Assembly: GCA_963709425.1 (NCBI GenBank)
Contig: CAVPWG010000005.1
Location: 216,030-280,029, forward strand
Source of the DNA: an uncultured Actinomycetes bacterium
Lineage (GTDB): Bacteria > Actinomycetota > Thermoleophilia > Gaiellales > JAICJC01
Reading direction: 5' to 3'
Length of the DNA: 64,000 bases
Every line of letters starts with the position of its first letter. The stretch's first letter is position 1. A program made the translations under genes and the position numbers. This document shows positions 3,386-25,315 of this stretch, piece by piece. The notes under the pieces were generated by a model. The model was not told where the DNA came from and did no database searches. It saw only the letters and a program-made list of their open reading frames with translations.

Positions 3386-3412
3386 CCGGCCGAGCGGTAC
3401 AATGCCGCCCGC

Positions 3413-3485
3413 GGGGCGTTAGCTCAGCTGGGAGAGCACCAGCTTTGCAAGCTGGGGGTCACCGGTTCGATCCCGGTACGCTCCA
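3413..3485 (+). tRNA. tRNA-Ala (anticodon UGC)
   Basis: 73-nt cloverleaf folded by hand: acceptor GGGGCGT/ACGCTCC with the G3:U70 Ala identity pair, D arm GCTC-AGCTGGGA-GAGC, anticodon arm CCAGC-TTTGCAA-GCTGG, variable GGGTC, T arm ACCGG-TTCGATC-CCGGT, discriminator A. CCA is not encoded. Confidence 0.95.
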
Positions 3486-3557
3486 CTCGCGTAATCCCTT
3501 TCTGGCAGCCGAACCTAGCGTTTCGGTGCGGCTTGGCGGAGCCGCACCGGAGCGAAC
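3439..3557. repeat. Left copy of 119/120-nt direct repeat (tRNA-Ala positions 27-73 plus 72 nt downstream); putative attL
   Basis: Aligns to 25196..25315 with 2 substitutions and one 1-nt indel (117 identical columns of 120). Covers the tRNA 3' part, a 29-nt spacer and the last ~13 codons plus stop of the integrase. Confidence 0.85.
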
Positions 3558-4640
3558 GGTGCGCACGGATTGCGCACACTCCGCCGAGCCTCTGCGACCG
3601 CGTCGACCATCCGCACGCCAGTCGCGAGCCGCTGCTCATCGAACATGTGCGAGTAGTGCGTCAGCGTCGTGACCGCGGTCGAGTGGCCCATCGACGCCGC
3701 GACGTAGGCGAGGGAGCGGCCCTCGTGGATGAGCAGCGAGGCGTAGGTGTGGCGAAGGTCGTATGGCGCAGCGTCGATGCCTGCGCTCGAGCAGGCAGGC
3801 CTCCAGACGCGGTTTCCGCCAGTTCCGAGGTCCAGGTACTCGCCGACCCCGCCGGCGACGACCAGAGCCCCTCGAGCGGGCTTCGAGGGCCTGAGCGCGG
3901 CCAGGTCGCCGTGGAGCGGCTCGACGATCTCGACCGTTCGCATCCGCCCGGTCTTCGTCCGGCGCAGCGCGCCGTACGACCAGCTCCGATCGACGACGAG
4001 GACGTGCTCGCCGACGCTGTCCCACGTCAACGCGAGGGCTTCGCCCGGCCGCAGGCCGGCGAGGGCGAGCAAGCTGACCAGACCTGGTCGCGCAGCACCG
4101 GCATGGCCGCCCGGATCTGCTCGACCTCAACCGGCGTCAACGCTCGCGGACGCTCCACGAGCACCGGCAGCTTCCGCACGCTCGAGCACGGGTTCGCCGG
4201 CAGATGCCCGTCGCGTACCGCGGCACCACACGCAGCCGAGAGGACGCTAAGCGCGCCGTTCGCGACCCCGGAGTCGCACCGCTCCCCGTGACTTCGGAGC
4301 GCCACTCACGGACGCGGCGGGACCCAGGTCGCGTAGCCGCACTCCCCGATCTGCGGCCGGACCCACCGGCTCAGAACGTCTTCGCGCTGCGACCGCGTTG
4401 ACGCCGCCCACAGCGGACTATCGGCCGCCCACCACACAGTCCAACCACTCGTCGAGCGTCTGCCGGCTCGGCACCGCGGCGGCGTGCACGCCGAGCTGCG
4501 GCCGTGCGGCGCTGCTCGAGCTCGAACGCGGTCGCGTCCTCTTTGCGGGTGAACGACTTGGCGTATTGGCGGTCGTCTCGGCGCCAGCGGACGACGTAGC
4601 TCCGGCCGCGCCGCCGGGTACCTTGCCGATGCGTCCACAC
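3515..4640 (-). pseudogene. Tyrosine recombinase / phage-type integrase, reading frame broken at 3 or more places
   Basis: Minus-strand pieces 4371..4640 (RGRSYVVRWRRDDRQYAKSFTRKEDATAFELE), 4027..4305 (LTPVEVEQIRAAMP) and 3515..4072 (GLRPGEALAL...LRHTYASLLIHEG...MGHSTAVTTLTHYSHMF) together read as one integrase with R..HxxR..Y catalytic residues. May be intact if the frame breaks are assembly indels. Confidence 0.8.
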
Positions 4641-5249
4641 AGGTCACGGAGACGCTGGAGACGAAGTCGTCCTGATCGCCGAGCACGTCGGCGAGTTCCC
4701 GGTTGCTGAGGGTGTGGGTGCGGCCGCGACCCAAACCACCGCCCCGATCCCGACGAGCGTCCCAGCAAGTGCCACCCAGAGCATGTGCTTGCGAATCCAT
4801 TCCATGCGGACATGATCCGTCGTCGCGGCGAGGACGCGCATCAGGGATTGCCCTCGACCTACCCGGCCTTCAGCCCTGCCGAAGAAGTCGCCGGACCCGC
4901 GCCTGCTCGCTCTGCGGCCGTGTCATCGACCGCTCCCAGGTCGCTGCTCTGCCGGCCTCGAGACCGTCGCCTGCTCCGAGTCGGGTCGGTGGCTCTGTCG
5001 CGAACCAGGCGGCGAGCGAACAGCGGGCGGCACTCGTTGCTCTAGGCGAAGGATGTTTGCGGCAGCTGTCCAACCCGCTGTACCGTCATCATGGCCCGAG
5101 ACCGCCGAGACAGCCATGGGGCTCAGGGGCCCGATCCTGCCTGGATAGACGCGCCACCTGGGAGGACGTCCATCACCGAAGCGTCGACCGTCGCGACCGC
5201 GGCACTCCCCTGCTGTAGCCGCCTCTCTGGCTTACAATCGGCCGAGCAT

Positions 5250-5717
5250 CTAGCTGGGGGCATTCGCGGGCAAACCGCGAACGATGACGACTGGGCATGC
5301 CGCCAGCTGCGCGCACTGATGGCTGACGGAGCCCAGCATCAGCCCCTTGAAGCCGCCCAGCCCGCGCGATCCCACGACGAGGAGATCCGCGCCACTCGCC
5401 GCCTCGATCAGGACTTCAGCCGGAGCGCCCTTCCGGACTCGGCAGTCGACCTCGACGCCCTGTAGCTCGTTCGAAACCTCGCTGACCGCCCGATCGAGCA
5501 CAGCCCGCGCGCTGGCCTCAAGATCCGCGCTCAGGTCGGCGAGCTCGGGGCGGATCGGCGCCAGGCTCCGGCTCGGCAACGGCGGCATATACCAGGCGAT
5601 GACAACCCGGACCTTGGCGCGCCGAAGAACCGCCTCGGCCACGCTCCAGCGTAGAGCAGCAACCGCGCTGTCCGAACCGTCCACGCCGACGACAATCAGA
5701 GCATCGTGGTTCTCCAC
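5250..5717 (-). CDS. Universal stress protein (UspA family)
   Basis: 155 aa. IVVGVDGSDSA N-terminus and C-terminal LLVVGSRGLGGFKGLMLGSVSHQCAQLAACPVVIV (ATP-binding G-2x-G-9x-G-S/T type motif). Confidence 0.85.
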   Translation of the reverse strand: MENHDALIVVGVDGSDSAVAALRWSVAEAVLRRAKVRVVIAWYMPPLPSRSLAPIRPELADLSADLEASARAVLDRAVSEVSNELQGVEVDCRVRKGAPAEVLIEAASGADLLVVGSRGLGGFKGLMLGSVSHQCAQLAACPVVIVRGLPANAPS

Positions 5718-5903
5718 CCGCGGATGCTACACCCGGGTCGAAACGGTCCACGACTCGCACCGAGGATGGCTCGGCATCGACCACGCTGTCCGCCGGCGGA
5801 CGGGGGAGCCCCAGAGGGCGGCTCAAGGTGTCCGGCACGAGACTTGCACCGGCGTGGCGAACCGGCGCGTGCGGGTACCCGGGCGAAGCGGCAAAATCCC
5901 GGG

Positions 5904-6887
5904 ATGCTCGACGTGTCGACCGCCGGATGGGCGGTCACGATCACCCTGATCGGCGCGCGTGGCTGGCGATATCGCCCTGTCGACCCGGCGGCCACACGCC
6001 ATCGGCTTCCGCGAGGCCGTGGCCTGGTCGGGCTTCTACGTGGCCGTTGCGGTCGTCTTCGGCGTGGTGTTCGGGGTCGTCGCAGGCTGGAATTTCGGCG
6101 CGCAGTACTTCGCCGGCTACGTCGTCGAGAAGAGCCTCTCAGTCGACAACCTGTTCGTGTTCGTGATCATCATGAGCACGTTCGCGGTGCCCGCCGAGCA
6201 CGAGCAGCGGGTTCTCACCCTCGGCATCGCCGCCGCGCTCGTCCTGCGGGCCTGCTTCATCGCGGTAGGCGCCGCGCTCCTGGACGCCTTCTCACTCATG
6301 CTGGTCGTGTTCGGCCTCCTGCTCGTCGTCACCGGAATCCACTCTTCCGCCACCGCGACGAGGACCCGACGGTGGACGACAACGTGCTGGTGGTCGCGGC
6401 CAGACGCGCGCTGCCGCTCACAGACCGCTACGACGGCGGTCGGCTGGTCACCCACGAGGACGGGCGGCGTGTGGCGACACCGCTCGTCCTCGTCCTGATC
6501 GCAATCGGCGGGACGGATGTCCTGTTCGCGCTCGACTCGATCCCGGCGGTATTCGGCGTTACCCGCGAGGCGTACATCGTCTTCGCCGCGAACGCGTTTG
6601 CGCTCCTCGGACTGCGGGCGCTCTACTTCCTCGTGTCCGGACTGCTCGATCGGCTCGTCTACCTCTCGACCGGCCTCGCGGCCGTGCTCATCTTCATCGG
6701 CGTGAAGCTGGTGCTGCACTACCTGCACGAGCGCCGCGACAGCATCCCGGAAGTGTCGACCGGCCTCTCGCTTGCGGTGATCGCCGCCGTGCTCGCGACG
6801 GCCACCATCGCAAGCGTAATCGCCGTGCGGCGCGACCCGAGCCTCCACGCCCGGGCGGGCTCGCTCCGCGGGCGGCGCCCCGAGTAG
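5904..6887 (+). pseudogene. TerC-family integral membrane protein, two apparent frameshifts
   Basis: MLDVSTAGWAVTITLIGA (frame 0) continues as AGDIALSTRRPHAIGFREAVAWSGFYV...EKSLSVDNLFVF (frame 1, ORF 5959..6498). It then returns to frame 0: RHRDEDPTVDDNVL...GGTDVLFALDSIPAVFGVT...ANAFALLGLRALYF. Breaks near 5955-5962 and 6338-6345. Confidence 0.75.
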
Positions 6888-7051
6888 CGGCGCGGCTGAT
6901 GTCACAAGCCACAGCTCGGAAGAACTTCACGACTTGACGGGATGTTCGGCGCGGGAGCGAAGATGCTTGCGGTTCTCGCGTAGACTCGTGCCGTCGCCGA
7001 CGACCACAACCGCAGCCTTGCAGGGCAACGGCCTGCCGCGCGAGTAGCGGC

Positions 7052-7621
7052 TCACCAGGGCGGCCTGACCCGCAGGCCGGTACGTGATCGTCTCCTTTGG
7101 TCGTCCTGGGAGAGGCGTGCTTTGACGTGCAGTTTCGCCAGCGGCCGGATCATCCCCAGGTGCCCCCCGCTCATCCCCAAGCCGCGGTGGTCGACCGCCG
7201 TGGCGGCCTCGACCTCGAGCTCGTCGCCGATCTGCCGCACTTTCGCGTCGAACTCGAGCGGCATGACCGTGCCCGCGGCTTCGAGACGACCCTCGACGCG
7301 CAGCATGCCATCGCCAGTATCACGAACGCGAGTGGAGGTGAAGCGCACCAGCGGGTGCTCGGCGACGTTGAAGAAGTCGGCCGACAGCAGGTGCCGGTCC
7401 CGCGTCGCGTTTCCGGTGGCCAGGCTGTGGGCGTCGATCGTCAGATCGATCGACGTGCCGTCCGGCCCGACGTCGTACCAGCCGTCGAACCGGTCGAAGC
7501 GACCGCGAACCGTGATCAGGCCCCAGAACGTTTTCACCGCGAAGTCAACAACGGTTTGATCCGGATCGACCCTCCAAAGCGTCGACGCGGCCGCTTTCTG
7601 ATTGGTATCCATGGTGATCAT
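7052..7621 (-). CDS. YceI-family periplasmic/lipid-binding protein
   Basis: Internal ATG at 7621 preceded by AGGAG. WRVDPDQTVVDFAVKTFWGLITVRGRF...LATGNATRDRHLLSADFFNVAEHP matches the YceI signature. The upstream part of ORF 7052..8095 has no coding features. Confidence 0.85.
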   Translation of the reverse strand: MITMDTNQKAAASTLWRVDPDQTVVDFAVKTFWGLITVRGRFDRFDGWYDVGPDGTSIDLTIDAHSLATGNATRDRHLLSADFFNVAEHPLVRFTSTRVRDTGDGMLRVEGRLEAAGTVMPLEFDAKVRQIGDELEVEAATAVDHRGLGMSGGHLGMIRPLAKLHVKARLSQDDQRRRSRTGLRVRPPW

Positions 7622-8148
7622 CGCAAACTCCTGTCGTTGGATATGCGATGAAGCCTGAACGCGAACACTGCCAGGCGGCTGCCACGCCGCGGACGCCCGC
7701 TGCCACGGGCCGCCCGCTCCACCCGCATCGCATAGGCGGGCTACAGGCCGGCGTTGACAGATCGAGCACGCGAACCCGCCACCCGGACGAGTGCGGCGGC
7801 CGCGGCATTCGTCAAGCGACTGGAAGGCGGGCCTCGAGACCGTGGCAGTGAGCACTTCTGGGTCGCAGCACCAGGGGCCGCTATGCGACGGCGAGCTGGT
7901 GCGACCCGATTGCTGCATGTCGTTCCCGAGCTTGCGGCGAGCACGCTCGAGGTGCTCGCTGCCCCTTCCGGGCACGCGGCCCGAGCTTTCACGACGAGGA
8001 GCCGGGGAAGACGCTGCACGAGCTGCGCTTCGGCCAGCCGACCGCTTCCAGAGCGGCCGCACTCGCCGCGAGTGCCGGGAAAGAGCTCCACGCAATCCGT
8101 CCGGCCGTCCTTATTGACCCCGGAATCATCTCGTTCATCCATGCTGGC

Positions 8149-9540
8149 TTAGGGCGGCGGCTGCTGCTTCTCCGCGGCGTCCGCCGCGGCGATGCGAGCT
8201 CGTCTGGCGGCGGTGAGCTCCTCCGTGACGATCTGGAATCCGGACGCGATCGGCACGGCGATGATCGCGCCGATCAACCCGAAGAGCGCCCCGAACGCCA
8301 GGACGCTTGCGAGCACGGTGAAGCCCGAGACCTGTGCGACCTTTCCGATGATCATCGGCTGCAGGATGTAGTTCTCGATCTGTTGGTACAGGACGATCAC
8401 GATCGCAAAGGCGATCAAGGCTCCAAGGCTGACCGACAGCGCGACGAATGCGATGATGACGCCGGCGATCGTGGCCCCGATGGTGGGGACGAGGTCGAGG
8501 ATCGCCGCGATCACCGCCAGGGCGAGCGGGTACGGAAGTCCGAGGATCACCGCCGTGACGCCATAGACCGTCCCGCAGACCAGGGAGATGGCCAGATTGC
8601 CGAGCATGTACCGCGAGGTCGTGTGGATGATTTGATCGGTGACCCGCAGGAACCGCTCCCGCTTGTCCCGATACAGCAGGCCGCCGATCCAGTCTCGGGC
8701 GTGCGGTTCGTCGATCAAGCCGAAGAGCGTCAGGAAGATGACCGAGAAGGCGAGTGTGAGTGTTCCCAGGGCCGAAACTCCGACATGGGTGACGCCGCCC
8801 GAAAGCTTGCCGACCCCCCCGGTGATGTCGGCCATGTGCGTCCTCAGCGTGTCGAGGGAGTCGCTCCCGCTGTTGATGGATTTGCCGAGGTCGCTGTGCC
8901 TCACCTTGTCGACGATCTGTGGCAGATCGCTGCTGAACCCACGCACCGTGTCGCTGATCGCCTGCACGAGCACCAGCGCGACTGCACCGATGAGGATCAC
9001 GATCCCCAGCACGAGCGCCGCCGCACACAGCCCCCGTCTCCAACCCAACCGCCGCTCCATGGAGGTCACCACGGGCGAGAGCACCGCGACGCTGAACACG
9101 GAGACCAGGATCACGAGGAGCGCGTTTCTGATCGACGCCAGTGCCAATGCGATCGCGGCGATGCCGGCGACCAGCAGGACCGTCTGGATCGATATCGTGA
9201 TCTCGACCTTCGGGCGACCGGTGTCCGTGGCCGCCGTGGAGGGCTCGGACGCGTTCGTCTGCTGATCGTGCCGACCGGGGTTGATGACTCCAACCTCCGC
9301 GGGGAAGTGTCTGCATGAACCGGCTCGCCCGTAACAGTCTACGGCCGCTTTCGGCCGAGCCGCGGCGCGGTAGCCGGCGCGCGTCGCAGCCGTCGCGTCG
9401 ACGAGCGAAGATCTGGCCTGCCTCACCCAACGACCGGCAGGATCCTCCAACTCGCTCAGAGCGATGATCGGCTGCGGCGTTTGGGCGAGCGTGACGGGTG
9501 ATCCGCGCACGACCGACCCGCCCCTGTAGCGTGCGGGCAT
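8149..9540 (-). CDS. AI-2E family transporter (PerM/UPF0118); start uncertain
   Basis: Multi-TM core with C-terminal LDLVPTIGATIAG...VIVLYQQIENYILQPMIIGK...GALFGLIGAIIAVPIA typical of AI-2E transporters. ORF is open to 9687; candidate starts at 9540 (ATG) and 9426 (GTG), neither with a convincing SD. Confidence 0.8.
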   Translation of the reverse strand: MPARYRGGSVVRGSPVTLAQTPQPIIALSELEDPAGRWVRQARSSLVDATAATRAGYRAAARPKAAVDCYGRAGSCRHFPAEVGVINPGRHDQQTNASEPSTAATDTGRPKVEITISIQTVLLVAGIAAIALALASIRNALLVILVSVFSVAVLSPVVTSMERRLGWRRGLCAAALVLGIVILIGAVALVLVQAISDTVRGFSSDLPQIVDKVRHSDLGKSINSGSDSLDTLRTHMADITGGVGKLSGGVTHVGVSALGTLTLAFSVIFLTLFGLIDEPHARDWIGGLLYRDKRERFLRVTDQIIHTTSRYMLGNLAISLVCGTVYGVTAVILGLPYPLALAVIAAILDLVPTIGATIAGVIIAFVALSVSLGALIAFAIVIVLYQQIENYILQPMIIGKVAQVSGFTVLASVLAFGALFGLIGAIIAVPIASGFQIVTEELTAARRARIAAADAAEKQQPPP

Positions 9541-10630
9541 GGCGGGGCCGGTTATCGAGCCACCGGACGCGCAATCCGGCGGAGCGGACGACGCCGGCCG
9601 GCGCAGGCCCGGCGGGCGCCGGGACTGGCGGTGGCTTCTGCGCAAGGCAGTCGCTCCGGCGATCAGCCTTGCGGTTGTGGTCGGCATCGCCGCCGTGATC
9701 CCGCAGTTTGCGAGCTACGGTGCGATCTGGCGCTCCATGAGCAGCCTCGACGGCCGCGACTGGGCCTTCATTGCCGGCTGCACCGTGCTGAACGTCGCGA
9801 CCAGCGGGCCGCCGTGGATGGCGGCGGTGCCAGGGCTCACCTACAAGCGATCCATGCTGCTCACGCAGACCTCGGCGCTGATGACGACGGCGTTGCCGGC
9901 GGGGGAGGCGGTGGGCTTCGCCACCCAGATCGCGATGCTACGGAGCTGGCGGCTTACGCCCCAGGTCGTCAGCGCCGGCTTCGTGCTGGTCGCCGGCTGG
10001 AACCAGCTGATCAACGTCATCGTCCCGGTCGCGTCCATCGCCGCGCTCGGCGCCGGGCACGCCAATCCCCTCTATCGCACGGTCAGCCTAATTGCCGGCG
10101 TCGTGCTGGTCGCGGTGGCCGTCGCCGTCGCGGTCCTCTTTCGCAGCCCTGCTCAGGCGCGCAGGATCGGAGACCTCGCCGGTCGGGTCGTCTCCCACGT
10201 GGGGGGGCTCTTCCATCGCCCGCCGCTCACGGGCGGGGGCGACCGCCTGGTCGCGATGCGCTCGCAGACGATCGCCGTGGCAGCTCGGCGCTGGCCCTTC
10301 CTGACGATCGCGACCGTCGCGAACCAGCTCACCGTGTTCGGCGTGCTGCTGGCGTGCCTCGCGGCAACCGGTGTGCACGGGATCACCCTCGTCGAGGCCC
10401 TGGCCAGCTGGTCGTTCGCCCGCCTGATCGGGTCCATCGCCATCACTCCGGGCGGCCTCGGCGTGCAGGAGCTGGGGTTGACCGGCGCGCTGATCGCGTT
10501 CGGTGGGAGTGCCGCGGCGGTGATCGCGACGGCCCTCCTCTTCCGAGTGGTCACCTTCGTGCCGACGGTCGTGGTCGGTTCGGCGTGCGCGCTGATCTGG
10601 CGCCGAGAGCAACAACGCAACGGCGAGTAG
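9539..10630 (+). CDS. Flippase-like membrane protein (lysylphosphatidylglycerol-synthase TM region / UPF0104 family)
   Basis: 363 aa, about 8 TM spans, C-terminal ITPGGLGVQELGLTGALIAFG motif characteristic of LPG_synthase_TM/TIGR00374 proteins. Confidence 0.7.
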   Translation: MAGPVIEPPDAQSGGADDAGRRRPGGRRDWRWLLRKAVAPAISLAVVVGIAAVIPQFASYGAIWRSMSSLDGRDWAFIAGCTVLNVATSGPPWMAAVPGLTYKRSMLLTQTSALMTTALPAGEAVGFATQIAMLRSWRLTPQVVSAGFVLVAGWNQLINVIVPVASIAALGAGHANPLYRTVSLIAGVVLVAVAVAVAVLFRSPAQARRIGDLAGRVVSHVGGLFHRPPLTGGGDRLVAMRSQTIAVAARRWPFLTIATVANQLTVFGVLLACLAATGVHGITLVEALASWSFARLIGSIAITPGGLGVQELGLTGALIAFGGSAAAVIATALLFRVVTFVPTVVVGSACALIWRREQQRNGE

Positions 10631-10878
10631 CACGTTGGCAGCTTCACCAGGCGCGGGCGAGGAACGTCATCCCGATCTCGACAAACCCGGCCGCGAGTGC
10701 GACGAGGCCGAAGAGCAGCGATCGAGAACCCTGATGTGTAGTCCTACCGTCAGCCGAACGCGGTGACCCAGTCCTGGCAAATTGCAAATCGCATCCGAGC
10801 CCTGCGCCGAACCCCGTACGCTGGTACCTTTAGCCGTCGTTCCTCCGTGCGGAAAGGCACGGCAAGCAAAGGAGGGCC

Positions 10879-12686: not shown

Positions 12687-12693
12687 GTTACTC

Positions 12694-13260: not shown

Positions 13261-13283
13261 GTCATTCCTCCTTGCGATTTGGG

Positions 13284-16845: not shown

Positions 16846-16847
16846 AG

Positions 16848-17107: not shown

Positions 17108-19543
17108 CTATACGTACGCCTTCTGTTGGAGCCACTTCAGCGCGAAAAAGCCCCACAGCGGTGGGAGGAAGTAGGTGCACAGGCGGTGGGTGATCGCGAT
17201 CGCGAAGGCGGTGTCCTGGTCGACTCCCATCGCCACCAGCCCGGCGGTGATGCCTGCCTCGGCGGCGCCGATTCCGCCCGGAACCGGCACCAGGCTTGAA
17301 AGCGCCGCGGCGGCCATATTGACTAGGAGGAGCTGGGCCAAGCCGAGGTCGACGCCATACGCTTGGCAGGCGGCTCCCAGTGTAAGTGCGAACAGCACCT
17401 GTGTGGCAAGGTTGGCGCCGAAAAGTTCCAGGCGCTTGCGTCGTGATCGCGCCACCGCCCAAAGGCTGCTGAGCGCGCTCCGCACTCCAGGAACCACCTT
17501 GGCTCGCAGGCGCGGAACCGCCATGGTGACGATCACACCGGCGACTAGCGCACCCAGGATCAGTCCGACCATCTGGGGGTCGGGGCCGCCATGGCCGAGT
17601 TGGCTGGTGTCGACCTTGAGATCGACGAAGGGCAGCAGCACTGCCACCAGCAGGATCTGAATCACGGTCTCCGAGACGCCGTCGACGGCGCTTGCGGCGA
17701 CCGCCTCGGGCGTGGGGGCTCCCATTCGCTGCAGGAAGCGTACGTTCATCGCGACCCGCGCGGCTGAGCCAGGCACGGTCAGGCTGACGAACTTGACAGC
17801 GGACTCCAGTGCGACGCAGGGCAAGAGCGGCAACGGTGTGGTGACTGCGCCGCGTAGCGAGATCGCGTCGCTTATCAGCGTCATCTGGGCGAGCACGACG
17901 CCGAGCACCACCCACGAGATCGACGCTGTGCGGAGTTCATCGGCGATGGTGCCGAATCCGATCTCGCCGAGCTGCTTGATCAGTAGGTACGCGGCGAGGC
18001 CGACGAGACCGGTGGTAAGAATGCCCTTCCAGGTGACTCTGTTGATTGGTGCGAGCTCGGGAGGTTCTTCTTGGTTCGTCGCGGACGCCGCGGCCGCGCG
18101 CAGCTCTTTGAGCGCGACGTCGCTGTGACGAGCCAGGTCGCGGAGGTGCGGTGTCAGCGCCGATCGCTGCAGGTAGGGAAGAGCGCCAGCTACCGCGTCG
18201 GTGCCGACTCCTCCGATCGCAGCTCGAAGCGCACGTTTCGGGCCAACCATCACCGTGCAGGCGACCAGCAGTTCGGCGACGTCGATGTCGATCGCAGACT
18301 GGGGCGCCCCCAACGTCGCTGCCGACAGATCAAGGATCGTCGCCGCTCCGTCGATGACGACGATGTTGCTTGCGTTGAGCCTGCCGTGGGAGATGCCGGC
18401 GTCATGCAGCCGGCCGACCTGATCCCAGAGGTCGTCGAGGATGCTGTCGGTGACGAGCTCTGTGGGGGACGTCTCGAGCGGTTCAAGATCCGGCTGTCGA
18501 GTGACCAGCAGCGCATCACCTTCCGCTCCCAACGCCGCCATGACCACCCCAGGCACGCGCACACCGGCTTGCGCCGCCATCAGCGCGGCCAGCGCTTCGT
18601 GCTCGACCTGCTCCAGGCGTCCGTCGGCGACGCTGCGGGGTGGATCCCGGTAGGCCAGCGAGCGCCAGCGTCGCGCAAGCCGCTGGGTATCTTGGGCGTC
18701 GCGACCCAGCAGCCGAACCCGCAGCGGCCTTGCCTCACCGTCGGCGGCACCGTATTGTGCGGCACCCATCCGCTGCTGCGGCCAGACCCGAACGTCGGTG
18801 GCGTCGATGCCGAGCTCCGCAAGCTGGTAGGCAACGCGCTGGACTGGTGGCACGCCTGCGGCCGTCCCGAAGCACAATCGCACTAGGGCACCACAGGCGA
18901 CACCAACGGCGAGCGCGCCGAACGCATGCGCCGGCAACGCGTAGCCCAGCGCGACAACACCTAGTGCAGCCAGCACGATAACCCAGTCAGCGAAGGCACG
19001 TGCGAATCTGGCCATCTCCGGTCCGGCCACAACGACGACGACGGCGACGACTGCCAAGCGGATCTCCGGGAATCCCCAGGTCGACGACCACCCATCCTCC
19101 GGCGTCGGCCACCGCGACTCCACCAGCCGACCAAGCACGGTCACCACAGCCGCAACAACGACGAGCCCCGCCACCAGATCGCGAGCCAAGAGCCACCGAC
19201 GGTGGATCACCACGTCCACCACGATCCCCGCGGCTACTACCAACGCAGCGATGAACAGCACCCGCCAAGGCGCCACCGCCCAGCCCAGAATCGTACGAAG
19301 AGCGTCCGCCACACGGTCGTCCACTCTGGCGTCGGACGCCGCGATCGCCGCCGACCAGCCAAGCACGAGAATCGCGCAGACCAGCAGTACACCGTCGACC
19401 GGACGCCGGTTCCGCTGCCCCGGCGCGACGTCCGCCAGCAGAATCGGCGCCGCCCGACTGTCCGAAAAATTCGCCTTCTCGCGCCGGCGCCGCACTTGCA
19501 CGGAAACCAACCCTCCTATCGCATCAGGGCCGCGCCGTCGCAC
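17108..19543 (-). CDS. Membrane protein: N-terminal TM bundle + kinase-like domain + C-terminal LPG-synthase-TM (UPF0104) domain
   Basis: 811-aa uninterrupted ORF. Central ISHGRLNASNIVVIDGAATILDLSAA resembles the HxDxxxxN / D(F/L)x catalytic core of RIO/LPS-kinase-like folds. C-terminus PVPGGIGAAEAGITAGLVAMG is the UPF0104 motif. Confidence 0.7.
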   Translation of the reverse strand: MRRRGPDAIGGLVSVQVRRRREKANFSDSRAAPILLADVAPGQRNRRPVDGVLLVCAILVLGWSAAIAASDARVDDRVADALRTILGWAVAPWRVLFIAALVVAAGIVVDVVIHRRWLLARDLVAGLVVVAAVVTVLGRLVESRWPTPEDGWSSTWGFPEIRLAVVAVVVVVAGPEMARFARAFADWVIVLAALGVVALGYALPAHAFGALAVGVACGALVRLCFGTAAGVPPVQRVAYQLAELGIDATDVRVWPQQRMGAAQYGAADGEARPLRVRLLGRDAQDTQRLARRWRSLAYRDPPRSVADGRLEQVEHEALAALMAAQAGVRVPGVVMAALGAEGDALLVTRQPDLEPLETSPTELVTDSILDDLWDQVGRLHDAGISHGRLNASNIVVIDGAATILDLSAATLGAPQSAIDIDVAELLVACTVMVGPKRALRAAIGGVGTDAVAGALPYLQRSALTPHLRDLARHSDVALKELRAAAASATNQEEPPELAPINRVTWKGILTTGLVGLAAYLLIKQLGEIGFGTIADELRTASISWVVLGVVLAQMTLISDAISLRGAVTTPLPLLPCVALESAVKFVSLTVPGSAARVAMNVRFLQRMGAPTPEAVAASAVDGVSETVIQILLVAVLLPFVDLKVDTSQLGHGGPDPQMVGLILGALVAGVIVTMAVPRLRAKVVPGVRSALSSLWAVARSRRKRLELFGANLATQVLFALTLGAACQAYGVDLGLAQLLLVNMAAAALSSLVPVPGGIGAAEAGITAGLVAMGVDQDTAFAIAITHRLCTYFLPPLWGFFALKWLQQKAYV

Positions 19544-19617
19544 TCATCCTTCCGCCCGGCCCGGCCACCCCCGGAGAGCGAGGTGGGCGGGCCGGGCTCG
19601 CTGAGGAAGCGACCTTC

Positions 19618-20064
19618 CTAGCTTTTCATCGCGAGATCGTCAGCATCCATACGCGCCGAGACGGCATCCAGCACCGCATACTCGGCCTCCTCGACGGTCG
19701 CATAGGCGTAATCGATCGCCATCAGCGCGTCCGCTTCGGCATCGTCGGCTCGAGTCTCGGCCCGGTTGGCGTCGAGCTGGCTCTTCTTCGCATCGATATT
19801 CCGACGCATCTCCGCGACATGGCTCGTCCACGACTTCTGAATGTCATCCCACGAGGCAGAGATTTGGGCGCCGGTCGCCGCCGCGCTCGCCCGCAACTCC
19901 TGGGCATGCGCCTCCGCCGTCGCTCTGACCTGATCGGCCGATTTCTCGACGTCGGCCTTGGCCTGGGTTCGCGCCGCGGCGGCGTGATCCTCAGCCTCCT
20001 TGGCGCGACTGGACAGCCTCGCCAACTGCTGCGAAGCGTCCTCGAGCTTCTCCGACGTAGTCAT
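19618..20064 (-). CDS. Alanine/glutamate-rich coiled-coil protein, function unknown
   Basis: 148-aa ORF with GGAGG-containing leader (CCAGGGAGGTCGCG ATG). No family recognised. Confidence 0.55.
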   Translation of the reverse strand: MTTSEKLEDASQQLARLSSRAKEAEDHAAAARTQAKADVEKSADQVRATAEAHAQELRASAAATGAQISASWDDIQKSWTSHVAEMRRNIDAKKSQLDANRAETRADDAEADALMAIDYAYATVEEAEYAVLDAVSARMDADDLAMKS

Positions 20065-20160
20065 CGCGACCTCCCTGGTCGTCGGTTTGCCCTCCCCTCG
20101 GAACGGCCGATCCTACTCCCGCAGTGCGCCGCCGACAACTGCGGCCATCCGGCGGCCTGC

Positions 20161-20188
20161 TATCTATCCATCTATCCATCTATCTATC
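20161..20188. repeat. Tetranucleotide tract (YATC)7
   Basis: TATC TATC CATC TATC CATC TATC TATC: a 28-nt AT-rich microsatellite in the 590-bp divergent intergenic region between 20064 and 20656. Confidence 0.9.
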
Positions 20189-20655
20189 TGCATGTTGTGG
20201 GTGACGATGATGGTGTGCTCGTCCTTGAGCCTAGACACGAGGAACTCGGCGCAGCCGGCGTTCAGTGTTCAAGCCACCTGCGAGCGACTTGGTGGCCGCG
20301 CCGCGGCCGTTTCGGCCGCTCGATCGCGCGGTCTTAACCTCCGGCAGCCGTCCATCTTCATCGACCCGGCGGCATCGGCTGCTCAACCAAGCCAAAGCCG
20401 CACAAACAAGGCCTTTTTTAGAATGGCGGCGGCGCTTACAGCCATGGCTAGCGGCTGCGGTCCTCCGAGAACTCATCGACCCCGAGCGTCGTTTTCCGGA
20501 TGCCGCGGGCGAGCCGTTCCCGAGTGGCCTCGCGAAGCAGTTCGGCGAGTGGCCGCGGGCGAGCTTCTTGATGTGACTGCGGAAACACCCGGCTACGAGG
20601 CGGGCGGCAGCGACGGTCTTCTAGGACGCCGCCGCCGCGGCCCTATGCTTCTTCC

Positions 20656-23600
20656 ATGGGGGTTTGTGCGGCTTGTGGGCAGGAGAACCCGGAGGGCGCC
20701 CGGTTCTGCAACGCCTGCGCCGCTCCTCTGCAACCCGCGGCGCCGCGCCGGGAGGAGCGCAAGGTCGTGACGGCGCTGTTCGCCGACCTGGTCGGCTTTA
20801 CGTCTCGCGCCGAACAGCTCGACCCGGAGGACGTGAGGGCCCTGCTGGCTCCCTACCACTCGCATCTGCGTGCCGAGCTGGAGCGCTACGGCGGGACGGT
20901 GGAGAAGTTCATCGGCGATGCCGTGATGGCGCTGTTCGGCGCACCGGTCACACACGAGGACGATCCGGAGCGGGCTGTGCGCGCGGCCCTGGCGATTCGC
21001 GACTGGGTGCGCGAGCACGAGGAGGAGCTGCGGCTGCGGATCGCGGTCAACACGGGCGAGGCGCTCATCGCATTGGGCTCGCGCCCGGAGGTGGGCGAAG
21101 GCATGGCCTCGGGGGACGTCGTCAACACCACGGCACGCCTGCAGGCAGCAGCACCAGTGAACGGGATCCTCGTCGGCGAGACGACGCACCGCGCCACGCG
21201 ACACGCGATCGACTACGCGGAGCGAGAGCCCGTCAGCGCAAAGGGAAAGGCGGAGCCGATTCCCGTTTGGGAGGCGATGCAGGCGCGCGCGGCCCACGGC
21301 GTCGACCTGCTCCGCGACGTGCACACGCCGCTCGTCGGCCGGACCCGCGAGCTCGAAGCGCTGCGAAACGCACTCGCCCGGGCAAGCGAGGAGCGTACCC
21401 CTCAGCTCGTCACGCTCGTCGGCGTGCCCGGGATCGGCAAGAGCCGGCTCGTATACGAGCTGTTGCAACTCGTTGAGGCGGAGCCCGAGTTGATCGCGTG
21501 GCGGCAGGGGCGATCGCTCCCCTACGGCGAGGGGGTGAGCTTCTGGCCAGTCGCGGAGATCGTGAAGGCCGAAGCGGGCATCCTCGAGAGCGATCCGCCC
21601 GCGGAGGTCGAAACCAAGCTACGACACGCGGCGGAGGGGATCGTGGTCGAGGATCGGGACTGGGTCGTCGGCCACCTGCAGCGACTCCTCGGCCATGGCG
21701 ACGACGTGGCAGTGGCGATCGAGCGGCGCGCGGAGGCGTTCGCGGCGTGGCGCAGTTTCCTCGAGGCCCTCGGCGAGCTCGGGCCTGCCGTTCTTGTCTT
21801 CGAGGACCTGCACTGGGCAGACGACGGAACGCTCGACTTCGTCGACCACCTCGTCGAGTGGGCGTCGGGCGTGCCGCTACTCGTCGTCGGCACCGCTCGG
21901 CCGGAGCTGCTCGAGCGCCGGTCGGCGTGGGGCGGCGGCAAGACCAACGCGCTTACGCTCGCGCTCTCACCCTTGTCCGACGAGGAGACGGCGCGCCTGA
22001 TCGCCGCCCTCGCCGAGCAGCCGCTGCTCGACGCAACGACCCAGCAGGGGCTACTCGCCCATGCGGAGGGAAACCCGCTCTATGCCGAGCAGTACGTCAG
22101 GATGGTCCTGGAGCGCTCCGACAAATCGGAGCTGCCGCTGCCGGAGACCGTGCACGGCATCATCGCGGCCCGTCTCGACGGTCTCGGCCCGGACGAGAAA
22201 TCGCTCATTCAGAACGCGGCCGTCCTCGGCAAGGTCTTCTGGGCTGGAGCCGCAGCAGCGCTCGGAGACAACGACCCACACGGCGCGGCGGAGCTCCTCC
22301 ACGGCCTCGAACGCAAGGAGTTCGTCCAGCGTGCCCGCCGTTCGTCCGTCGCCGGCGAGACCGAGTACTCCTTCCGCCACGTCCTGGTACGCGACGTCGC
22401 CTACGCGCAGATTCCACGCGCCGCGCGGGCCGAGAAGCACCAACGCGCCGCCGGCTGGATCGAGACTCTCGGGCGCCCCGAGGACCACGCCGAGATGGTC
22501 GCGCATCACCTGACCACCGCACTCGAGTTCGCTGGCGCCGCCGGGATGGACACCGCAGGGCTCGAGCGGGACGCCCGGCGAGCCCTTCGCCGCGCTGCCG
22601 ACCGTGCGGCGGGCCTCGGCTCGCTGCCGGCGGCGGCGTCGTTCTATGAGCGGCTGCTCGAGCTTACGCCGCGAGACGATCCAGGTCGTGCACAGCTCCT
22701 GTACCGCTACATACGCGTCCCGGACCGAGGACTACGAGATCGACGACGCCCTCTTGGAGGAAGTGCGCGCCGCGCTGCGGGCGACCGGCGATAGCGCCAC
22801 AGCCGCGGAGGCTGAGGCCGCGTTCGCGAACATCTACTGGCTCCGGGGCGACCGAGATGCCTGCCTTGCCTCGGTCGCACGCGCAGTCGAGCTAATCTCG
22901 GACCAGGAGGCTTCTCCGGAGAAGGCGTATGTTCTCGCCCAGGCGTCCCGTTTCGAGATGCTGGCCGGGCACGACGAGCATGCGATCGAGCTCGGCCGCG
23001 GGGCGCTGGAGCTAGGAGAGCGCTTCCGACTCGACCGAGGTCCGCGCGCGCTCACTAGACAACATCGGCGTCTCGCGGGTCAACATCGGCGACGTGGGCG
23101 GCATCGAGGATCTCAAACGGAGCCTCGCCATCGGCGAGGCGGCTAACTCGATCGAGGCCTGGCAGGCCGCCTCGAACATGGCGTCGATGTTCTTCCAGCT
23201 CGGCTATCTCGAGAAGGCAGAGGAGATGCGGTCGCGGGCGAGGGCCATCAACGAGCGCTTCGGCATCCCTGGGTTCGAACGCTGGAGCCTTGGCGAGGAC
23301 GTCGAGTCCTTCTACCAGCGCGGTCGCTGGGACGAAGCCGAAACGATCAGCAAGCAATGGCTCGCGGACCTGGGCCCGTCCGGCCATTACTTGGAAGCCA
23401 CTGTGCGCGTCTACCGGTCGCAGCTGTCGTTCGCACGCGACGACGTCGACGCCGCCGTTCAGGAGGGCGAGCTCTCCTTGCAACGCGCCCGCGTCGTCAA
23501 GGATCCCCAGGTCCTGGAGCCGATTCTGGCCTGGTGGGCTTTTCTCACCTTGAAACTCGGGCGGCAAGCTGACGCTGCGGATTCGCTCGACGAGCTCCTC

Positions 23601-23969
23601 ACCGAGTGGGGCGGCGTGCACTGCGGCTACGCGAACGGAGCCGTGGCGCCCGCCTGGGTGGCCCACGCACTCGGCCGCGGGCCGGAGGTCGAGCCAACGC
23701 TCAAACCACGCGCGCCGATGAATCTTTGGGCGAACGCAGCGCTCCACATCGTCCGCGGTGAGTTCACTGCGGCCGCGGACATCATCGACCAGATCGGCTC
23801 CCTTCCGGATGCGGCGTACGCACGCCTTCGCGCCGCGCACGCGCTCGTCGATGCCGGGCGACGCGCGGAGGCCGACGAGCAGCTCGGACGCGCACTCACG
23901 TTCTACCGCTCGGTCGGCGCGGCACGTTACGTCCGCGAAGCCGAGGCGCTGCCGGCCGCCACGGCGTGA
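20656..23969 (+). pseudogene. Zn-ribbon + class III adenylate/guanylate cyclase + AAA (STAND-like) ATPase + TPR signalling protein; two frame breaks
   Basis: CAACGQENPEGARFCNAC zinc ribbon, FADLVGFT...GDAVMALFGAP cyclase core, GVPGIGKSRL P-loop, then TPR-like repeats continuing through ORFs 22604..23146 and 23094..23969. Breaks near 22712 and 23035 (removing one nt gives ...LDEVRARSLDNIGVSRVNIGDVGGIEDL). Confidence 0.85.
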
Positions 23970-24080
23970 TCTCTGTGGTCGCCGGAACGCACTTTTCAGG
24001 CTGCACGGTAAGGAGGGGGCAACGGTTCGAGTCCGTCAGAGGGCTCTAAAGACGTGATCCCGATCTGCCTAACGGCCGTG

Positions 24081-24686
24081 TCATCCGGTGATGACGACGC
24101 CGCGGCGGCTGTAGAGGTCTTCCGTGGCCGCTTGCAGGAGGAACGAGGCCACGCCCGCGCGTGAGATTTTCTGCGACATCCCGACCTTCTCGCTTTCGGG
24201 GACGACACTAGCCTCGGTCTTGGGCCCGTTGGTCAGCTTGGTGGCGTAGACAATCGTCCAGTCGAGGCTGCTGGCGCGCAGGACTTCCTCACCGGCAGTC
24301 TTGTCCTTGATCTGACTACCCATTGCTATGCCGGTTACGACCTTGGTGACGGGAGTGAGCCGGTCACGCGCGACGGCGAAGGAGGACAACATGACGACGC
24401 GCTCGGGCCCATTCTGTTTGGCCGCGTCCACAATGGCGCGCGTCGCCTCGGCCATCACCGGCCCCCTCGCGCCGAGGACGCTGATGACAGCGTCGCCCCC
24501 GTTCATGGCCTCGGAGACCGCTGCGCGGTCGGTTGCGTCGCCTTCGACAACATGGAGGTTGGGATTGGTGATGGGCAGTTTCTGCCCGGACCGAACGAGG
24601 GCCGTGACGCGATGTCCCGCAGCGAGCGCCTGCTCGACCAGCGGAATGCCGGTGGCGCCAGCGGCGCCGAGGATGCTCAGTTTCAT
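24081..24686 (-). CDS. NAD(P)H-binding (NmrA/BVR-B-like) oxidoreductase
   Basis: MKLSILGAAGATGIPLVEQALAAGHRVTALVR Rossmann GxxGxxG start; 201 aa, typical size for atypical SDR/flavin-reductase-like proteins. Confidence 0.85.
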   Translation of the reverse strand: MKLSILGAAGATGIPLVEQALAAGHRVTALVRSGQKLPITNPNLHVVEGDATDRAAVSEAMNGGDAVISVLGARGPVMAEATRAIVDAAKQNGPERVVMLSSFAVARDRLTPVTKVVTGIAMGSQIKDKTAGEEVLRASSLDWTIVYATKLTNGPKTEASVVPESEKVGMSQKISRAGVASFLLQAATEDLYSRRGVVITG

Positions 24687-25107
24687 CGGTCTCCTCCCAT
24701 CGCGTTCGCGCGCGCGGCGCCCGCGAACGTCTCATCATCGGAAGCTTCCCGCCGCTCATTCTACGGCTGATGCTGCCGAGGAGGACTGCCAACGTGATGC
24801 CACGGTGGAGCGGCAGGTAACGCCGGACGGCGGCCGAGCGGCGCCGCTATCGGTCGGCCCTGCGCGCGCTCGCCGACGACCTAGCCGCCACATGGCAGGC
24901 GCGCTACCACCTCGTGTGGTACTTCGCCCTGCCGACCGGCCATCCGATGCGGCGGGCAGGCGAGTCTCCGACTGAGACAAGTCATTAGGACATACCCGCA
25001 ACCGAGCCATTGCTCGGGCCAGGAGCGTTGCAAGCGCTCAACTGCGCGCCGCTAAGGTCGGCGATGCGCGCCGTGCGCACATTTTGCGCACACCCGGCAG
25101 ACTATCG

Positions 25108-25180
25108 GGGGGTACGAGAGGGCACGGCCGCGGTTGGTATTTCGCTTAACCATGCTCCCCTCGTACCCTCTCGTACCCCC
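25108..25180. repeat. 15-bp perfect inverted repeat flanking a 43-nt loop, 15 nt left of the attR repeat
   Basis: GGGGGTACGAGAGGG (25108..25122) versus CCCTCTCGTACCCCC (25166..25180). The right arm region also contains a CTCGTACCC tandem. Confidence 0.9.
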
Positions 25181-25195
25181 ACTCCCCGCCGCGAT

Positions 25196-25315
25196 CCAGC
25201 TTTGCAAGCTGGGGGTCACCGGTTCGATCCCGGTACGCTCCACTCGCGATAATCCCTTTCTGGCAACCGAACCTAGCGTTTCGGTGCGGCTTGGCGGAGC
25301 CGCACCGGAGCGGAC
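25196..25315. repeat. Right copy of the tRNA-Ala 3'-half direct repeat; putative attR
   Basis: Begins at the anticodon-stem CC and runs through the tRNA 3' end plus 73 nt. The 5' half of the tRNA is absent here. Confidence 0.85.

Follow-up and report, generated by a model that had tools for sequence, protein, structure and literature searches.

A decayed integrase element at a tRNA-Ala(UGC) gene of Gaiellales, probably in tandem with the stub of a related element

The window analysed here, 64,000 nt of DNA from an uncultured Gaiellales bacterium, contains a 21.9-kb interval (island A) bracketed by two near-identical direct repeats that begin inside a tRNA-Ala gene. Is island A a mobile unit, as an earlier note on this DNA had proposed, or what is left of one? 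In our view island A is probably what remains of a tyrosine-integrase element that entered tRNA-Ala(UGC) in its 3′ half and has become immobile; next to it, in tandem, there probably lies the stub of another element, a close relative. As a relic, island A would be unable to excise by itself any more.

The tRNA-Ala target and the direct repeat

The sole tRNA gene in the whole window, detected by both ARAGORN and Rfam, is an intact tRNA-Ala(TGC). The features of the target, the repeat and the adjoining arms were as follows.

3413-3486, + strand: tRNA-Ala(UGC), intact, the integration target (ARAGORN, TGC; Rfam RF00005, 66 bits)
3439-3557, + strand: left repeat copy (attL), inside the complete tRNA
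3560-3577: TGCGCAC-N4-TGCGCAC motif, candidate arm-type integrase site (P′ arm), directly past the left repeat
25074-25091: second TGCGCAC-N4-TGCGCAC motif, candidate arm-type site (P arm), on the island side of the right repeat and about 105 nt from it
25108-25180: strong hairpin in the P arm (19-nt arms, 95% complementary, 35-nt loop)
25196-25315, + strand: right repeat copy, made up of a displaced tRNA-Ala 3′ fragment (25196-25243), a spacer and the 3′ end of a second integrase gene

The repeat proved to be as first described. Its copies (119 and 120 nt) start at tRNA position 27, which is 3439 in the left copy. They are identical over 53 nt (3439-3491 and 25196-25248), after which come a 1-nt indel (an extra A at 25249) and 66 nt with 2 substitutions (3492-3557 against 25250-25315). 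Exactly two copies occur in the window with up to 3 mismatches allowed, against none in 100 shuffled sequences, and a sensitive scan of the whole window found no third copy, degenerate ones included. The left copy completes the tRNA, whose 3′ part from position 27 onward is supplied by the repeat. It consists of 48 nt of tRNA (positions 27-74) and a further 71 nt, comprising a 28-nt spacer, the integrase stop codon and about 13 terminal integrase codons (P′ side). The right copy holds the same tRNA positions on the + strand, as a displaced fragment oriented like the tRNA-Ala; the sequence upstream of it is unrelated, so the 5′ half of a tRNA is lacking, again as the earlier note had it.

The motif TGCGCAC-N4-TGCGCAC was found at two sites in the window against 0.12 expected. 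Both may function as arm-type integrase sites. The left motif is identical in two relatives (L015 and L016) and present in a third (L017), each time beside the orthologous integrase. It overlaps the C-terminal codons of the integrase and also encodes its conserved residues VRxxCA; coding constraint on these residues could be the cause of its conservation. Matches to miRNA precursors are explained by the hairpin at 25108-25180 and are spurious.

Occupancy and composition of the site

The tRNA-Ala is conserved beside its anchor gene in 13 of 14 related loci. The island A interval was absent from this site in all 14; BLAST homology of these loci (L001-L014) ends at about window 3497-3509. The sister genome (L001) has an insert of its own, 9.1 kb long and without an integrase, whose perfect 47-nt repeats lie at the same position of the tRNA. 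L004 shows the exact empty site for this insert; none was seen for island A. Integration at this tRNA position is active within the lineage, with the site occupied in the sister genome and empty in L004.

Variability at this site extends beyond the 21.9 kb, since nothing of the stretch from about 3.5 to 56.7 kb is present there in the closest genomes. Synteny with two of them (L002 and L003) resumes at window 56734, which in those loci is just 3.3 and 6.8 kb away from the tRNA. The earlier note had proposed looking in relatives for the sequence right of 25315 directly behind the tRNA-Ala; the empty-site relatives (L004, L005, L006 and L014) have unrelated sequence there. It had also called for a comparison of GC3, in which the island genes were lower than the flanks (median 0.83 vs 0.92, p=5e-5), but the DNA right of 25315 was as atypical as the island (0.80). 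Being atypical in GC3 and missing in relatives to about 56.7 kb, this right-hand DNA is not the ancestral neighbour of the tRNA.

25968-56733: further DNA, without synteny here to the closest genomes (Pfam, BLAST, GC3)

Up to about 50.7 kb it holds stress-type genes (a second AI-2E transporter, two DUF892 genes, DUF3618/Holin-X, an anti-sigma kinase, PLD, Nramp, CHAD-CYTH, GT4, RR-cupin and GNAT) and its GC3 is low; from there up to 56.7 kb GC3 is flank-like.

The cargo of island A and the element family

5250-13377: cargo block 1 (Pfam)
5250-5717, - strand: USP (Pfam)
5959-6887, + strand: TerC, frameshift-split, the two halves in different frames (Pfam)
7052-8095, - strand: YceI (Pfam)
8149-9687, - strand: AI-2E transporter (Pfam)
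9539-10630, + strand: UPF0104/LPG_synthase_TM (Pfam)
10879-12348, + strand: DUF2252 (Pfam)
12694-13377, - strand: DUF308/HdeD (Pfam)
13925-23969: cargo block 2 (Pfam; frame plot)
13925-16267, - strand: NB-ARC/TPR (Pfam)
16033-17013, - strand: SARP/BTAD (Pfam)
17108-19543, - strand: kinase-like plus flippase-like protein (Pfam)
19618-20064, - strand: small ORF
20656-22794, + strand: Zn-ribbon/cyclase/AAA_16 (Pfam)
23094-23969, + strand: TPR (Pfam)
24013-24821, - strand: NAD(P)H-binding gene (24081-24686) with short flanks
24021-24044, + strand: tRNA-like 3′ fragment within the NAD(P)H-gene unit

Pfam bore out the cargo named previously (USP, TerC, YceI, AI-2E, UPF0104, DUF2252, HdeD and three large multidomain proteins), together with the statement that 3.5-25.2 kb contains no phage, conjugation or replication genes. 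The USP, YceI, AI-2E, UPF0104, DUF2252, HdeD and NAD(P)H-binding genes are still intact, and TerC is decaying. To judge from domain order, SARP/BTAD and NB-ARC/TPR are probably a single frameshift-split gene, and Zn-ribbon/cyclase/AAA_16 and TPR probably one broken gene, so that these two are probably decaying as well. The NAD(P)H-binding gene is a separately shared unit, 96-98% identical in nucleotide sequence to copies in three unrelated contexts; it aligns without gaps to L028 and has a repeat-flanked form of its own in L030. PADLOC gave only weak, generic domain-level matches (the cyclase to PycC, PLD to DrmC, a P-loop protein to mad8). An anti-phage defence island was rejected, as no complete known defence system was detected in the cargo.

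Intact members of the element family carry Prim-Pol, an AAA_25 ATPase, an HTH_17 gene matching the TIGR01764 excisionase, and the integrase beside the tRNA. The integrase, tRNA-Ala and anchor gene of L015 and L016 are collinear with window 4611-891 (87% nucleotide identity), and a 56%-identical family member (L018) lies at the same tRNA and anchor gene. The window retains no remnant of the Prim-Pol/AAA_25/excisionase module and no HTH_17/excisionase homolog. Loss of this module gives island A its cargo-only look, which the earlier note had taken for a cargo unusual for the element type.

The 20-kb cargo may have come with the integrase element or may have accreted later. In the latter case it would never have travelled with the integrase, but would be chromosomal or mosaic Gaiellales DNA accumulated between two att-bearing ends through later insertions, recombination of tandem elements or accretion of small units. 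The orthologous element in L015 departs from the window immediately past the integrase start, and no relative found carries the island A cargo beside an orthologous integrase. The abundance of Gaiellales homologs of the cargo genes, the separately shared NAD(P)H unit and the similar gene types and GC3 right of the repeat would also fit accretion. We nevertheless hold accretion to be unlikely. The cargo is contiguous with the P arm and core on the right and the integrase on the left, which makes it element interior by definition, it is absent from the site in the closest genomes, and other family members also bear non-mobility genes past the module.

The integrase pseudogene

3515-4625, - strand: tyrosine integrase pseudogene (three-frame reading; nucleotide alignment to L015)

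A tyrosine integrase frame does abut the tRNA, as the earlier note had seen (PF00589, E=4.5e-10; ORF end at 3515), but judged by its sequence the gene is a pseudogene and not functional. Alignment with L015 shows uncompensated 1-nt indels at six places (about 4499, 4438, 4345, 4319, 4269 and 4081) and an extra compensating pair at 3830/3815. Past 4611 its 5′ end diverges from the ortholog and the first ~5 codons are replaced. Joined across frames, the protein is 85% identical in amino acids to an intact 370-aa ortholog (P0001) at the same tRNA site in a related metagenome contig. The C-terminal frame retains the R, HxxR, H and Y motifs, with GLRPGE, TKTGR, LRHTYAS, MGHS and THYSH readable in it, and the homologs carry PF14659, PF22022 and PF00589. 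The catalytic R...K...HxxR...H/W...Y set and the N-terminal SAM-like/core-binding domain of tyrosine recombinases were thus both found, in the window with the N-terminal domains out of frame with the catalytic domain. The family was absent from the viral contigs searched.

The frameshifts could instead be consensus errors of a long-read metagenome assembly, so that the integrase would be intact in the organism and the island mobile or mobilisable. Consensus errors of metagenome-assembled genomes (MAGs) can concentrate in strain-variable regions, which polish poorly. The window may itself come from a MAG, as the closest genomes do; related sequences derive from MAG or metagenome assemblies. One of these, L020, has an HNH-like gene (homologous to that of the second element, below) which is out of frame, split over three frames; such assemblies evidently do contain indels, whether genuine or artefactual. 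However, in the comparison that gave six uncompensated indels in 1.1 kb of the integrase, the 1.6-kb anchor gene next to it came out with no net frameshift, and the NAD(P)H gene alignment had none either. The integrase indels lie mainly outside homopolymer runs, and an 11-nt tandem duplication, as found in the second element, is untypical of read error. Even after repair of the indels, the 5′ end of the integrase and the whole excisionase/replication module would still be missing. Consensus error is therefore a quite improbable explanation.

The right junction and the second element

25319-25967, + strand: HNH-like ORF, first gene of the second element, frameshifted

The right repeat had been taken for a plain attR bordering host flank; it contains the 3′ end of a second integrase gene, and the gene that comes next is of element type. 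Since the 71 nt of the repeat past the tRNA are spacer and integrase 3′ codons, the right copy is, on the sequence evidence, an attP-like junction between two elements, in which 25074-25195 and the repeat form a P-core-P′ arrangement leading into a second, internally deleted element. The frameshift in the HNH-like ORF is caused by an 11-nt tandem duplication (25411-25432), repair of which yields a 212-aa ORF. This ORF had no Pfam or NCBIfam match and resembled an HNH endonuclease of known structure (PDB 5h0m, E=2e-4). Its homology to L020 (5479-6128, 70% nucleotide match; tblastn E=2e-48) begins at 25314, and the L020 homolog lies in the interior of an intact family member, past the Prim-Pol/excisionase module and about 4 kb from the integrase. 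The second element retains only about 13 integrase codons. A sensitive whole-window scan detected no distal att site for it, so that solely the attP-like junction and the L020 homology argue for a tandem.

A single, still mobile island of attL-int...attR layout, with the 119-nt repeat as the attP/attB identity segment and native host flank from 25316 onward, would suit the orientation of the tRNA and its fragment, the integrase adjoining the tRNA and the near-identity of the repeats. That much of the earlier reading stands: island A is a tRNA-targeted element with a tRNA-proximal integrase and a displaced fragment at its other end. As a mobile island it is largely refuted, and we regard it as very unlikely, given an integrase with six frameshifts and a replaced 5′ end, the absent excisionase, integrase codons in the repeat extension that are not expected of host flank, the homology of 25314-25971 to the interior of an intact family element, and the unrelated post-tRNA sequence of the empty-site relatives. 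An assembly artefact, in which the right-hand repeat copy or the join between 25.2 and 25.3 kb is chimeric or mis-collapsed, might be suspected because the DNA probably comes from a MAG and assemblies classically go wrong at the repeats of mobile elements, but it is hardly credible when the copies differ (2 substitutions, 1 indel), all four flanks are unique, the junction is coherent (arm motif, hairpin, core, integrase 3′ end, element gene with an L020 homolog) and the sister genome shows the same architecture independently.

Comparison with known systems

Islander is a database defining tRNA/tmRNA-integrated genomic islands (Hudson, Lau & Williams 2015, PMC4383910). Like those islands, island A has a regenerated tRNA, a same-orientation displaced 3′ fragment and an internal tyrosine integrase gene beside the tRNA, and its repeat start in the anticodon-stem region fits the anticodon-centred class described there (PMC4383910). 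Unlike them, its integrase is a pseudogene and its repeat reaches 71 nt beyond the tRNA, since what adjoins it is the integrase-proximal end of another element. By the Islander criteria, island A shows an intact target tRNA, a displaced fragment, an integrase in the interval (as a pseudogene only) and absence in relatives. In an Islander tandem array, every member contributes a tRNA fragment and an integrase gene of its own (PMC4383910); this assignment was rejected, there being only two core copies and a second element without either. A functional self-mobile element was rejected for want of an uninterrupted integrase ORF and of any excisionase homolog in the window, and a prophage because Pfam detected no capsid, terminase, portal or tail genes in 3.5-50.7 kb. 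The Holin-X match (29218-29715) lies in a DUF3618/Holin-X gene pair, with other phage genes absent.

Actinomycete integrative and conjugative elements (AICEs) combine int/xis with a replication gene and an FtsK/SpoIIIE-type DNA translocase. An AICE was rejected, as the window has no intact int/xis, replication gene or translocase of this type; in the relatives, the available segments hold int, xis, Prim-Pol and AAA_25 and lack an FtsK-type gene. pSAM2 and SLP1 are actinomycete integrative (and conjugative) elements that integrate at the 3′ end of tRNA genes. They appear to resemble the present family in the actinobacterial host, in tRNA 3′-end integration and in the int-xis beside a small replication module of its intact members. 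Unlike them, the window and the sequenced parts of relatives contain no FtsK/SpoIIIE-type transfer gene or Rep, and the window copy lacks the whole module. CIMEs, described for Streptococcus ICESt-type elements, are att-flanked units that have lost their own recombination genes and are formed by accretion and decay. Island A is CIME-like in keeping both att sites, in the loss of integrase/excisionase function and in having a related remnant in tandem; the sister genome's integrase-less insert with perfect 47-nt repeats is likewise CIME-like. By analogy, island A might be mobilised in trans by an intact family member.

Proposed history and significance

The integrase of a tRNA-integrating element recombines attP (P arm, tRNA-identical core, P′ arm) with the tRNA gene. 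For a relic in tandem with the stub of a related element, the following history is probable. Recombination of attP (P arm, 47-nt core, P′ arm) with tRNA-Ala from position 27 would have regenerated the gene with the element's copy of the 3′ half and moved the original 3′ half to the far end. Two related elements, or two copies, would have ended up at the tRNA in head-to-tail order. In the distal element a deletion would have fused integrase codon ~357 to the region upstream of the HNH-like gene, its far att site being lost, and a second deletion would have removed the module of the proximal element up to integrase codon ~5.

Island A belongs, in decayed form, to a known class. As a kind of mobile island it is ordinary, its mechanism is textbook, and it opens no new question. 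A literature search at title and abstract level found no papers describing such integrase elements in Gaiellales. Island A also serves as a warning about method: where a direct repeat continues far past the tRNA, it should be taken as an inter-element junction, not as the host boundary. We offer only tentatively that Gaiellales may harbour an undescribed small Prim-Pol/AAA_25/excisionase/integrase family that repeatedly colonises tRNA-Ala(UGC) (tRNA-Gly(GCC) in one relative) and then loses its mobility module, leaving att-flanked, integrase-less blocks of stress genes, CIME-like and movable in trans. Separately, and as tentatively, a one-gene NAD(P)H-binding unit flanked by ~95-nt repeats containing a tRNA-like fragment may be spreading between contexts at 96-98% nucleotide identity. 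An integrase-element family and an integration hot spot are documented here in Gaiellales, a very abundant uncultured soil lineage. The growth of a tRNA locus to a variable region of ~53 kb by serial insertion and decay bears on how stress-tolerance genes are shuffled in soil actinobacteria.

The tRNA-Ala repeat and the integrase pseudogene

The tRNA-Ala(TGC) gene at 3413-3486 (+ strand; ARAGORN and Rfam) was the sole tRNA of the window, and the Rfam search of the window yielded nothing else. The near-identical direct repeats of the tRNA-Ala 3′ half reported in the earlier note are real. The first part of the repeat was exact over 53 nt (3439-3491 and 25196-25248); the right copy then had one extra base, followed by 2 substitutions in 66 nt (3492-3557 versus 25250-25315). 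The repeat started at tRNA position 27. Its left copy formed part of the complete tRNA. Unrelated sequence preceded the right copy, which indeed lacked the tRNA 5′ half. The window contained only these two copies, with none expected by chance, and a sensitive scan of the window detected no degenerate third copy. A candidate third, decayed att core at ~26,021-26,062 (CCAG at its start, CTCCA at its end) was rejected, as its score of 20 was background (mean 17.8, 95th percentile 24).

A tyrosine integrase had been noted beside the tRNA. Integrase sequence does adjoin the tRNA, but the gene is broken. The adjoining ORF (3515-4072, minus strand) matched the last third of PF00589 only, and a three-frame reading found the remainder of a typical integrase dispersed over other frames. 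The frame-joined conceptual integrase retrieved 226 homologs. The best of them (P0001), 85% identical, was an intact integrase of 370 aa with its complete set of SAM-like, core-binding and catalytic domains. It was encoded on metagenome contigs L015 and L016, which were collinear with window 4611-891 at 87% nucleotide identity and carried, in order, the integrase, tRNA-Ala and the same neighbouring gene (530-558 aa) as the window. Nucleotide alignment with this ortholog revealed eight 1-nt indels in the window integrase, mostly outside homopolymer runs, six of which were uncompensated (codons 43, 63, 93, 102, 119 and 182). In the same comparison, the adjacent 1.6-kb anchor gene, to the left of the tRNA, had no net frameshift. 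Homology to L015 was lost ~14 nt into the integrase gene, so that other DNA now stands in place of the original 5′ end and of all the sequence upstream. Judged from these alignments, the window integrase is predicted to be dead. No member of the integrase family was found in viral contigs.

Gene content of the island

Genes were called by third-position GC bias (the DNA is ~68% G+C) and annotated with Pfam. Between the tRNA and the right repeat copy (3.5-25.2 kb, island A) the following were identified.

Features of island A (3.5-25.2 kb; Pfam)
Integrase fragment
USP, TerC, YceI, AI-2E transporter, LPG_synthase_TM (UPF0104) protein, DUF2252, DUF308/HdeD
SARP/BTAD ORF overlapping an NB-ARC/TPR ORF
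Kinase-like and flippase-like protein, 811 aa
Zn-ribbon/cyclase/AAA_16 ORF, then a TPR ORF
NAD(P)H-binding protein

Pfam identified no phage, conjugation or replication genes in 3.5-25.2 kb, which bears out the earlier description of the cargo in this respect. The STAND-like large proteins were considered as a defence system and set aside, since they had generic matches only.

Part of the cargo was decayed. TerC was split, with Pfam model positions 1-82 falling in the 5959-6498 frame and 95-177 in another. The SARP and NB-ARC/TPR ORFs overlapped by 234 nt in different frames, and 300 nt in a third frame lay between the cyclase-AAA_16 and TPR ORFs; from its domain order, each pair is probably a broken single gene. 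The remaining cargo genes appear intact. The AI-2E gene of the island and the one just to its right shared a 75-nt stretch of 73% identity (8314-8388 and 26253-26327). These two transporter genes are paralogs, separate from the att repeat.

The gene nearest the right end of the island, encoding the 201-aa NAD(P)H-binding protein (24013-24821), was 96-98% identical at the nucleotide level to copies in three unrelated neighbourhoods.

Copies of the NAD(P)H-binding gene
L028, 1230-1894
L029, 6039-6723
L030, 8543-9634

The shared homology took in the gene, 16-135 nt before it and 43-68 nt after it, and no further; the neighbourhoods all differed, and the att site of the window element was found in none of the three. 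The clusters of this protein were very large (up to 578 members), and synonymous and nonsynonymous differences among the copies were about equal. In L030 a direct repeat of ~95 nt, composed of a tRNA-like T-arm/acceptor fragment and reiterated GGCAAC motifs, bracketed the gene, and the window retained only the downstream copy of this repeat (24021-24044). Possibly, this is a one-gene unit with flanking att sites and no integrase. The segment 24021-24044 is only a tentative second tRNA fragment, as the ARAGORN call was malformed and appeared at relaxed thresholds only, and Infernal gave no match.

Both the divergence of L015 from the window directly beyond the integrase and the occurrence of one cargo gene, for the NAD(P)H-binding protein, as an independently shared unit would fit a 20-kb cargo that did not travel with the integrase element. 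We consider this unlikely, and read the cargo as a probable part of a tRNA-integrated island.

The tRNA-Ala site in related genomes

The anchor protein recovered 14 loci from Gaiellales MAGs (59-94% amino acid identity), and tRNA-Ala(UGC) adjoined the anchor gene in 13 of them. Homology to the window stopped 11-23 nt past the tRNA in all of these. The earlier note had asked whether tRNA-Ala in relatives is directly followed by the sequence to the right of 25315; this was so in none.

In locus L001 an exact 47-nt repeat, from the same tRNA position 27, bracketed 9.1 kb (763-9941) containing an AAA_25 fragment, an amino-acid permease, a GntR regulator and an FAD monooxygenase; no integrase was detectable in this insert. 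Its tRNA-adjacent ORF (8041-9921) was considered as a possible intact integrase and rejected, being an Arg-rich shadow ORF with no Pfam match. A contiguous stretch of L004 (3261-5485) aligned to L001 in two blocks 9,085 nt apart, the core aligning with both. The alignments identify L001 and L004 as an occupied/empty pair. The tRNA-Ala site is read as an integration hot spot.

Homologs of window 56,736-57,856 were close to the tRNA in the two closest genomes, at a distance of only 3.3 kb in L002 and 6.8 kb in L003, so a stretch of ~53 kb (window 3.5-56.7 kb) is non-syntenic at this site. An empty-site search of metagenome contigs via the junction ORF returned distant relatives only (27-58% over short stretches). 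The AI-2E gene to the right of the repeat was used for the same purpose; its homologs had differing contexts, none of them adjoining tRNA-Ala.

Window 33209-34248, holding a 278-aa weakly NAD-binding ORF and a small ORF, was 81-92% identical in nucleotides to L002, L003, L005 and L006, a divergence similar to that of the syntenic flank. The homologs were in opposite orientation and at another position, past an SDR gene in L002 and L003; in L005 they lay at a distance of 8.5-9.6 kb from the tRNA, with a similar placement in L006. This would indicate translocation or inversion, or independent acquisition.

The right repeat as a probable element junction

The tRNA end and the integrase stop codon were 28 nt apart. 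Past the tRNA, the remaining 71 nt of the repeat are thus spacer, stop and ~13 terminal integrase codons, and the right copy therefore holds the terminal part of a second integrase gene. No integrase remnant was found beyond 25315, and tblastn support was confined to the repeat. Post-tRNA sequences were of two types. The ‘CTCGC...’ type, by integrases or at occupied sites, was present at both window copies and in L015, L002, L003, L012 and the proximal side of L001, the last with AATGCTCGCAAAATGCTCGCAA repeats; L004, L005, L006, L014 and the distal side of L001 had unrelated, host-type flanks. In this comparison the right repeat copy is assigned to the element type.

Directly past the repeat, 25314-25971 matched L020 (5479-6128) at 70% nucleotide identity. 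L020 is an intact element with an integrase of this family; there the matched gene lies beyond the Prim-Pol/HTH_17 module, ~4 kb from the integrase. In the window an 11-nt tandem duplication at 25411-25432 (CAACCGCAAGC twice, then a near-copy) shifts the frame of this ORF. Removing one unit restored a 212-aa ORF that matched L020 (E=2e-48) and a solved HNH endonuclease in the PDB (E=2e-4). The junction ORF had no match in Pfam or NCBIfam, and is called HNH-like solely from the PDB sequence match. Against the repaired ORF, its homolog in L020 (5485-6101) occupied three different frames. The 206-aa product called there is largely out of frame, and the gene is either a pseudogene too or an assembly indel problem.

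The motif TGCGCAC-N4-TGCGCAC was located left of the right core (25074-25091) and again directly past the left repeat (3560-3577), two occurrences in the window versus 0.12 expected. It was identical beside the orthologous integrase in L015 and L016 and present in L017. Between this candidate arm-type motif and the att core was a near-perfect hairpin (25108-25180; 19-nt arms, 95% complementary, 35-nt loop). The hairpin also gave rise to a cluster of spurious miRNA-precursor matches in Rfam.

We interpret 25074-25315 as a putative P-core-P′ junction, such as arises where two elements lie head to tail. Of the earlier attL-int...attR layout, the reading as a tRNA-integrated island stands, but the right copy is reassigned to a junction with a second element. 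This distal element would have lost everything from integrase codon ~357 to its own HNH-like gene, and its far att site was not detectable in the window.

Consensus error in a strain-variable region could also generate frameshifts, given that the closest genomes are all MAGs and that one may be the source of the window too. However, the decay of the integrase contrasts with its intact neighbours, the contexts are non-homopolymer, and the HNH-like ORF carries the 11-nt duplication. These points argue for the indels as real mutations, and we regard consensus error as unlikely.

Composition and the DNA right of the repeat

Median gene-level GC3 was 0.83 in island A, 0.80 in the 26-50.7 kb region (B) and 0.92 in the outer flanks. 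Both A (p=5e-5) and B (p=2e-5) differed from the flanks, and A versus B was not significant (p=0.06). The proposed GC3 comparison thus finds the island atypical, but the DNA to its right equally so. In gene type that DNA likewise resembled the island, with a second AI-2E, two DUF892, DUF3618/Holin-X, PLD, Nramp, CHAD-CYTH, GT4 and RR-cupin.

The stretch 28700-29715 holds two overlapping ORFs, DUF3618 and ‘Phage_holin_3_6’ (Holin-X), with a homologous pair near the AI-2E gene in L026. Holin-X was rejected as evidence of a prophage, with no other phage genes nearby. Outside the island, the ORF at 51193-51612 ended in the first half of Trans_reg_C (model positions 3-45 of 77) and a second ORF began 10 nt past it; 51193-52143 is probably another frameshifted regulator.

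Intact family members and classification

Family members P0012 (L018/L019), P0016 (L020) and P0021 were compared, and shared a conserved tRNA-adjacent layout of Prim-Pol, AAA_25 ATPase, small ORFs, an HTH_17 gene and the integrase. The HTH_17 protein matched excisionase family TIGR01764 above cutoff. L018 had the same tRNA-Ala and the same anchor gene as the window. Integrase P0002 (L017, 191-1408), 64% identical to the reconstructed window integrase, adjoined tRNA-Gly(GCC), so the family has more than one tRNA target. No Prim-Pol, AAA_25 or excisionase remnants were found in the window by tblastn with the module proteins (E<1e-2). The cargo, which had been thought unusual for such an element, therefore owes its cargo-only look to loss of the mobility module.

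All the features by which Islander defines tRNA-integrated islands were found: the tRNA is regenerated, its displaced 3′ fragment has the same orientation, and an integrase lies within the interval. Island A did not qualify as a self-mobile element, nor as an Islander tandem array, prophage, AICE or defence island. CIME-type remnants are decayed, att-flanked elements, and island A resembles them in both respects. Island A is best read as a decayed example of a known element class, the tRNA-integrated island.
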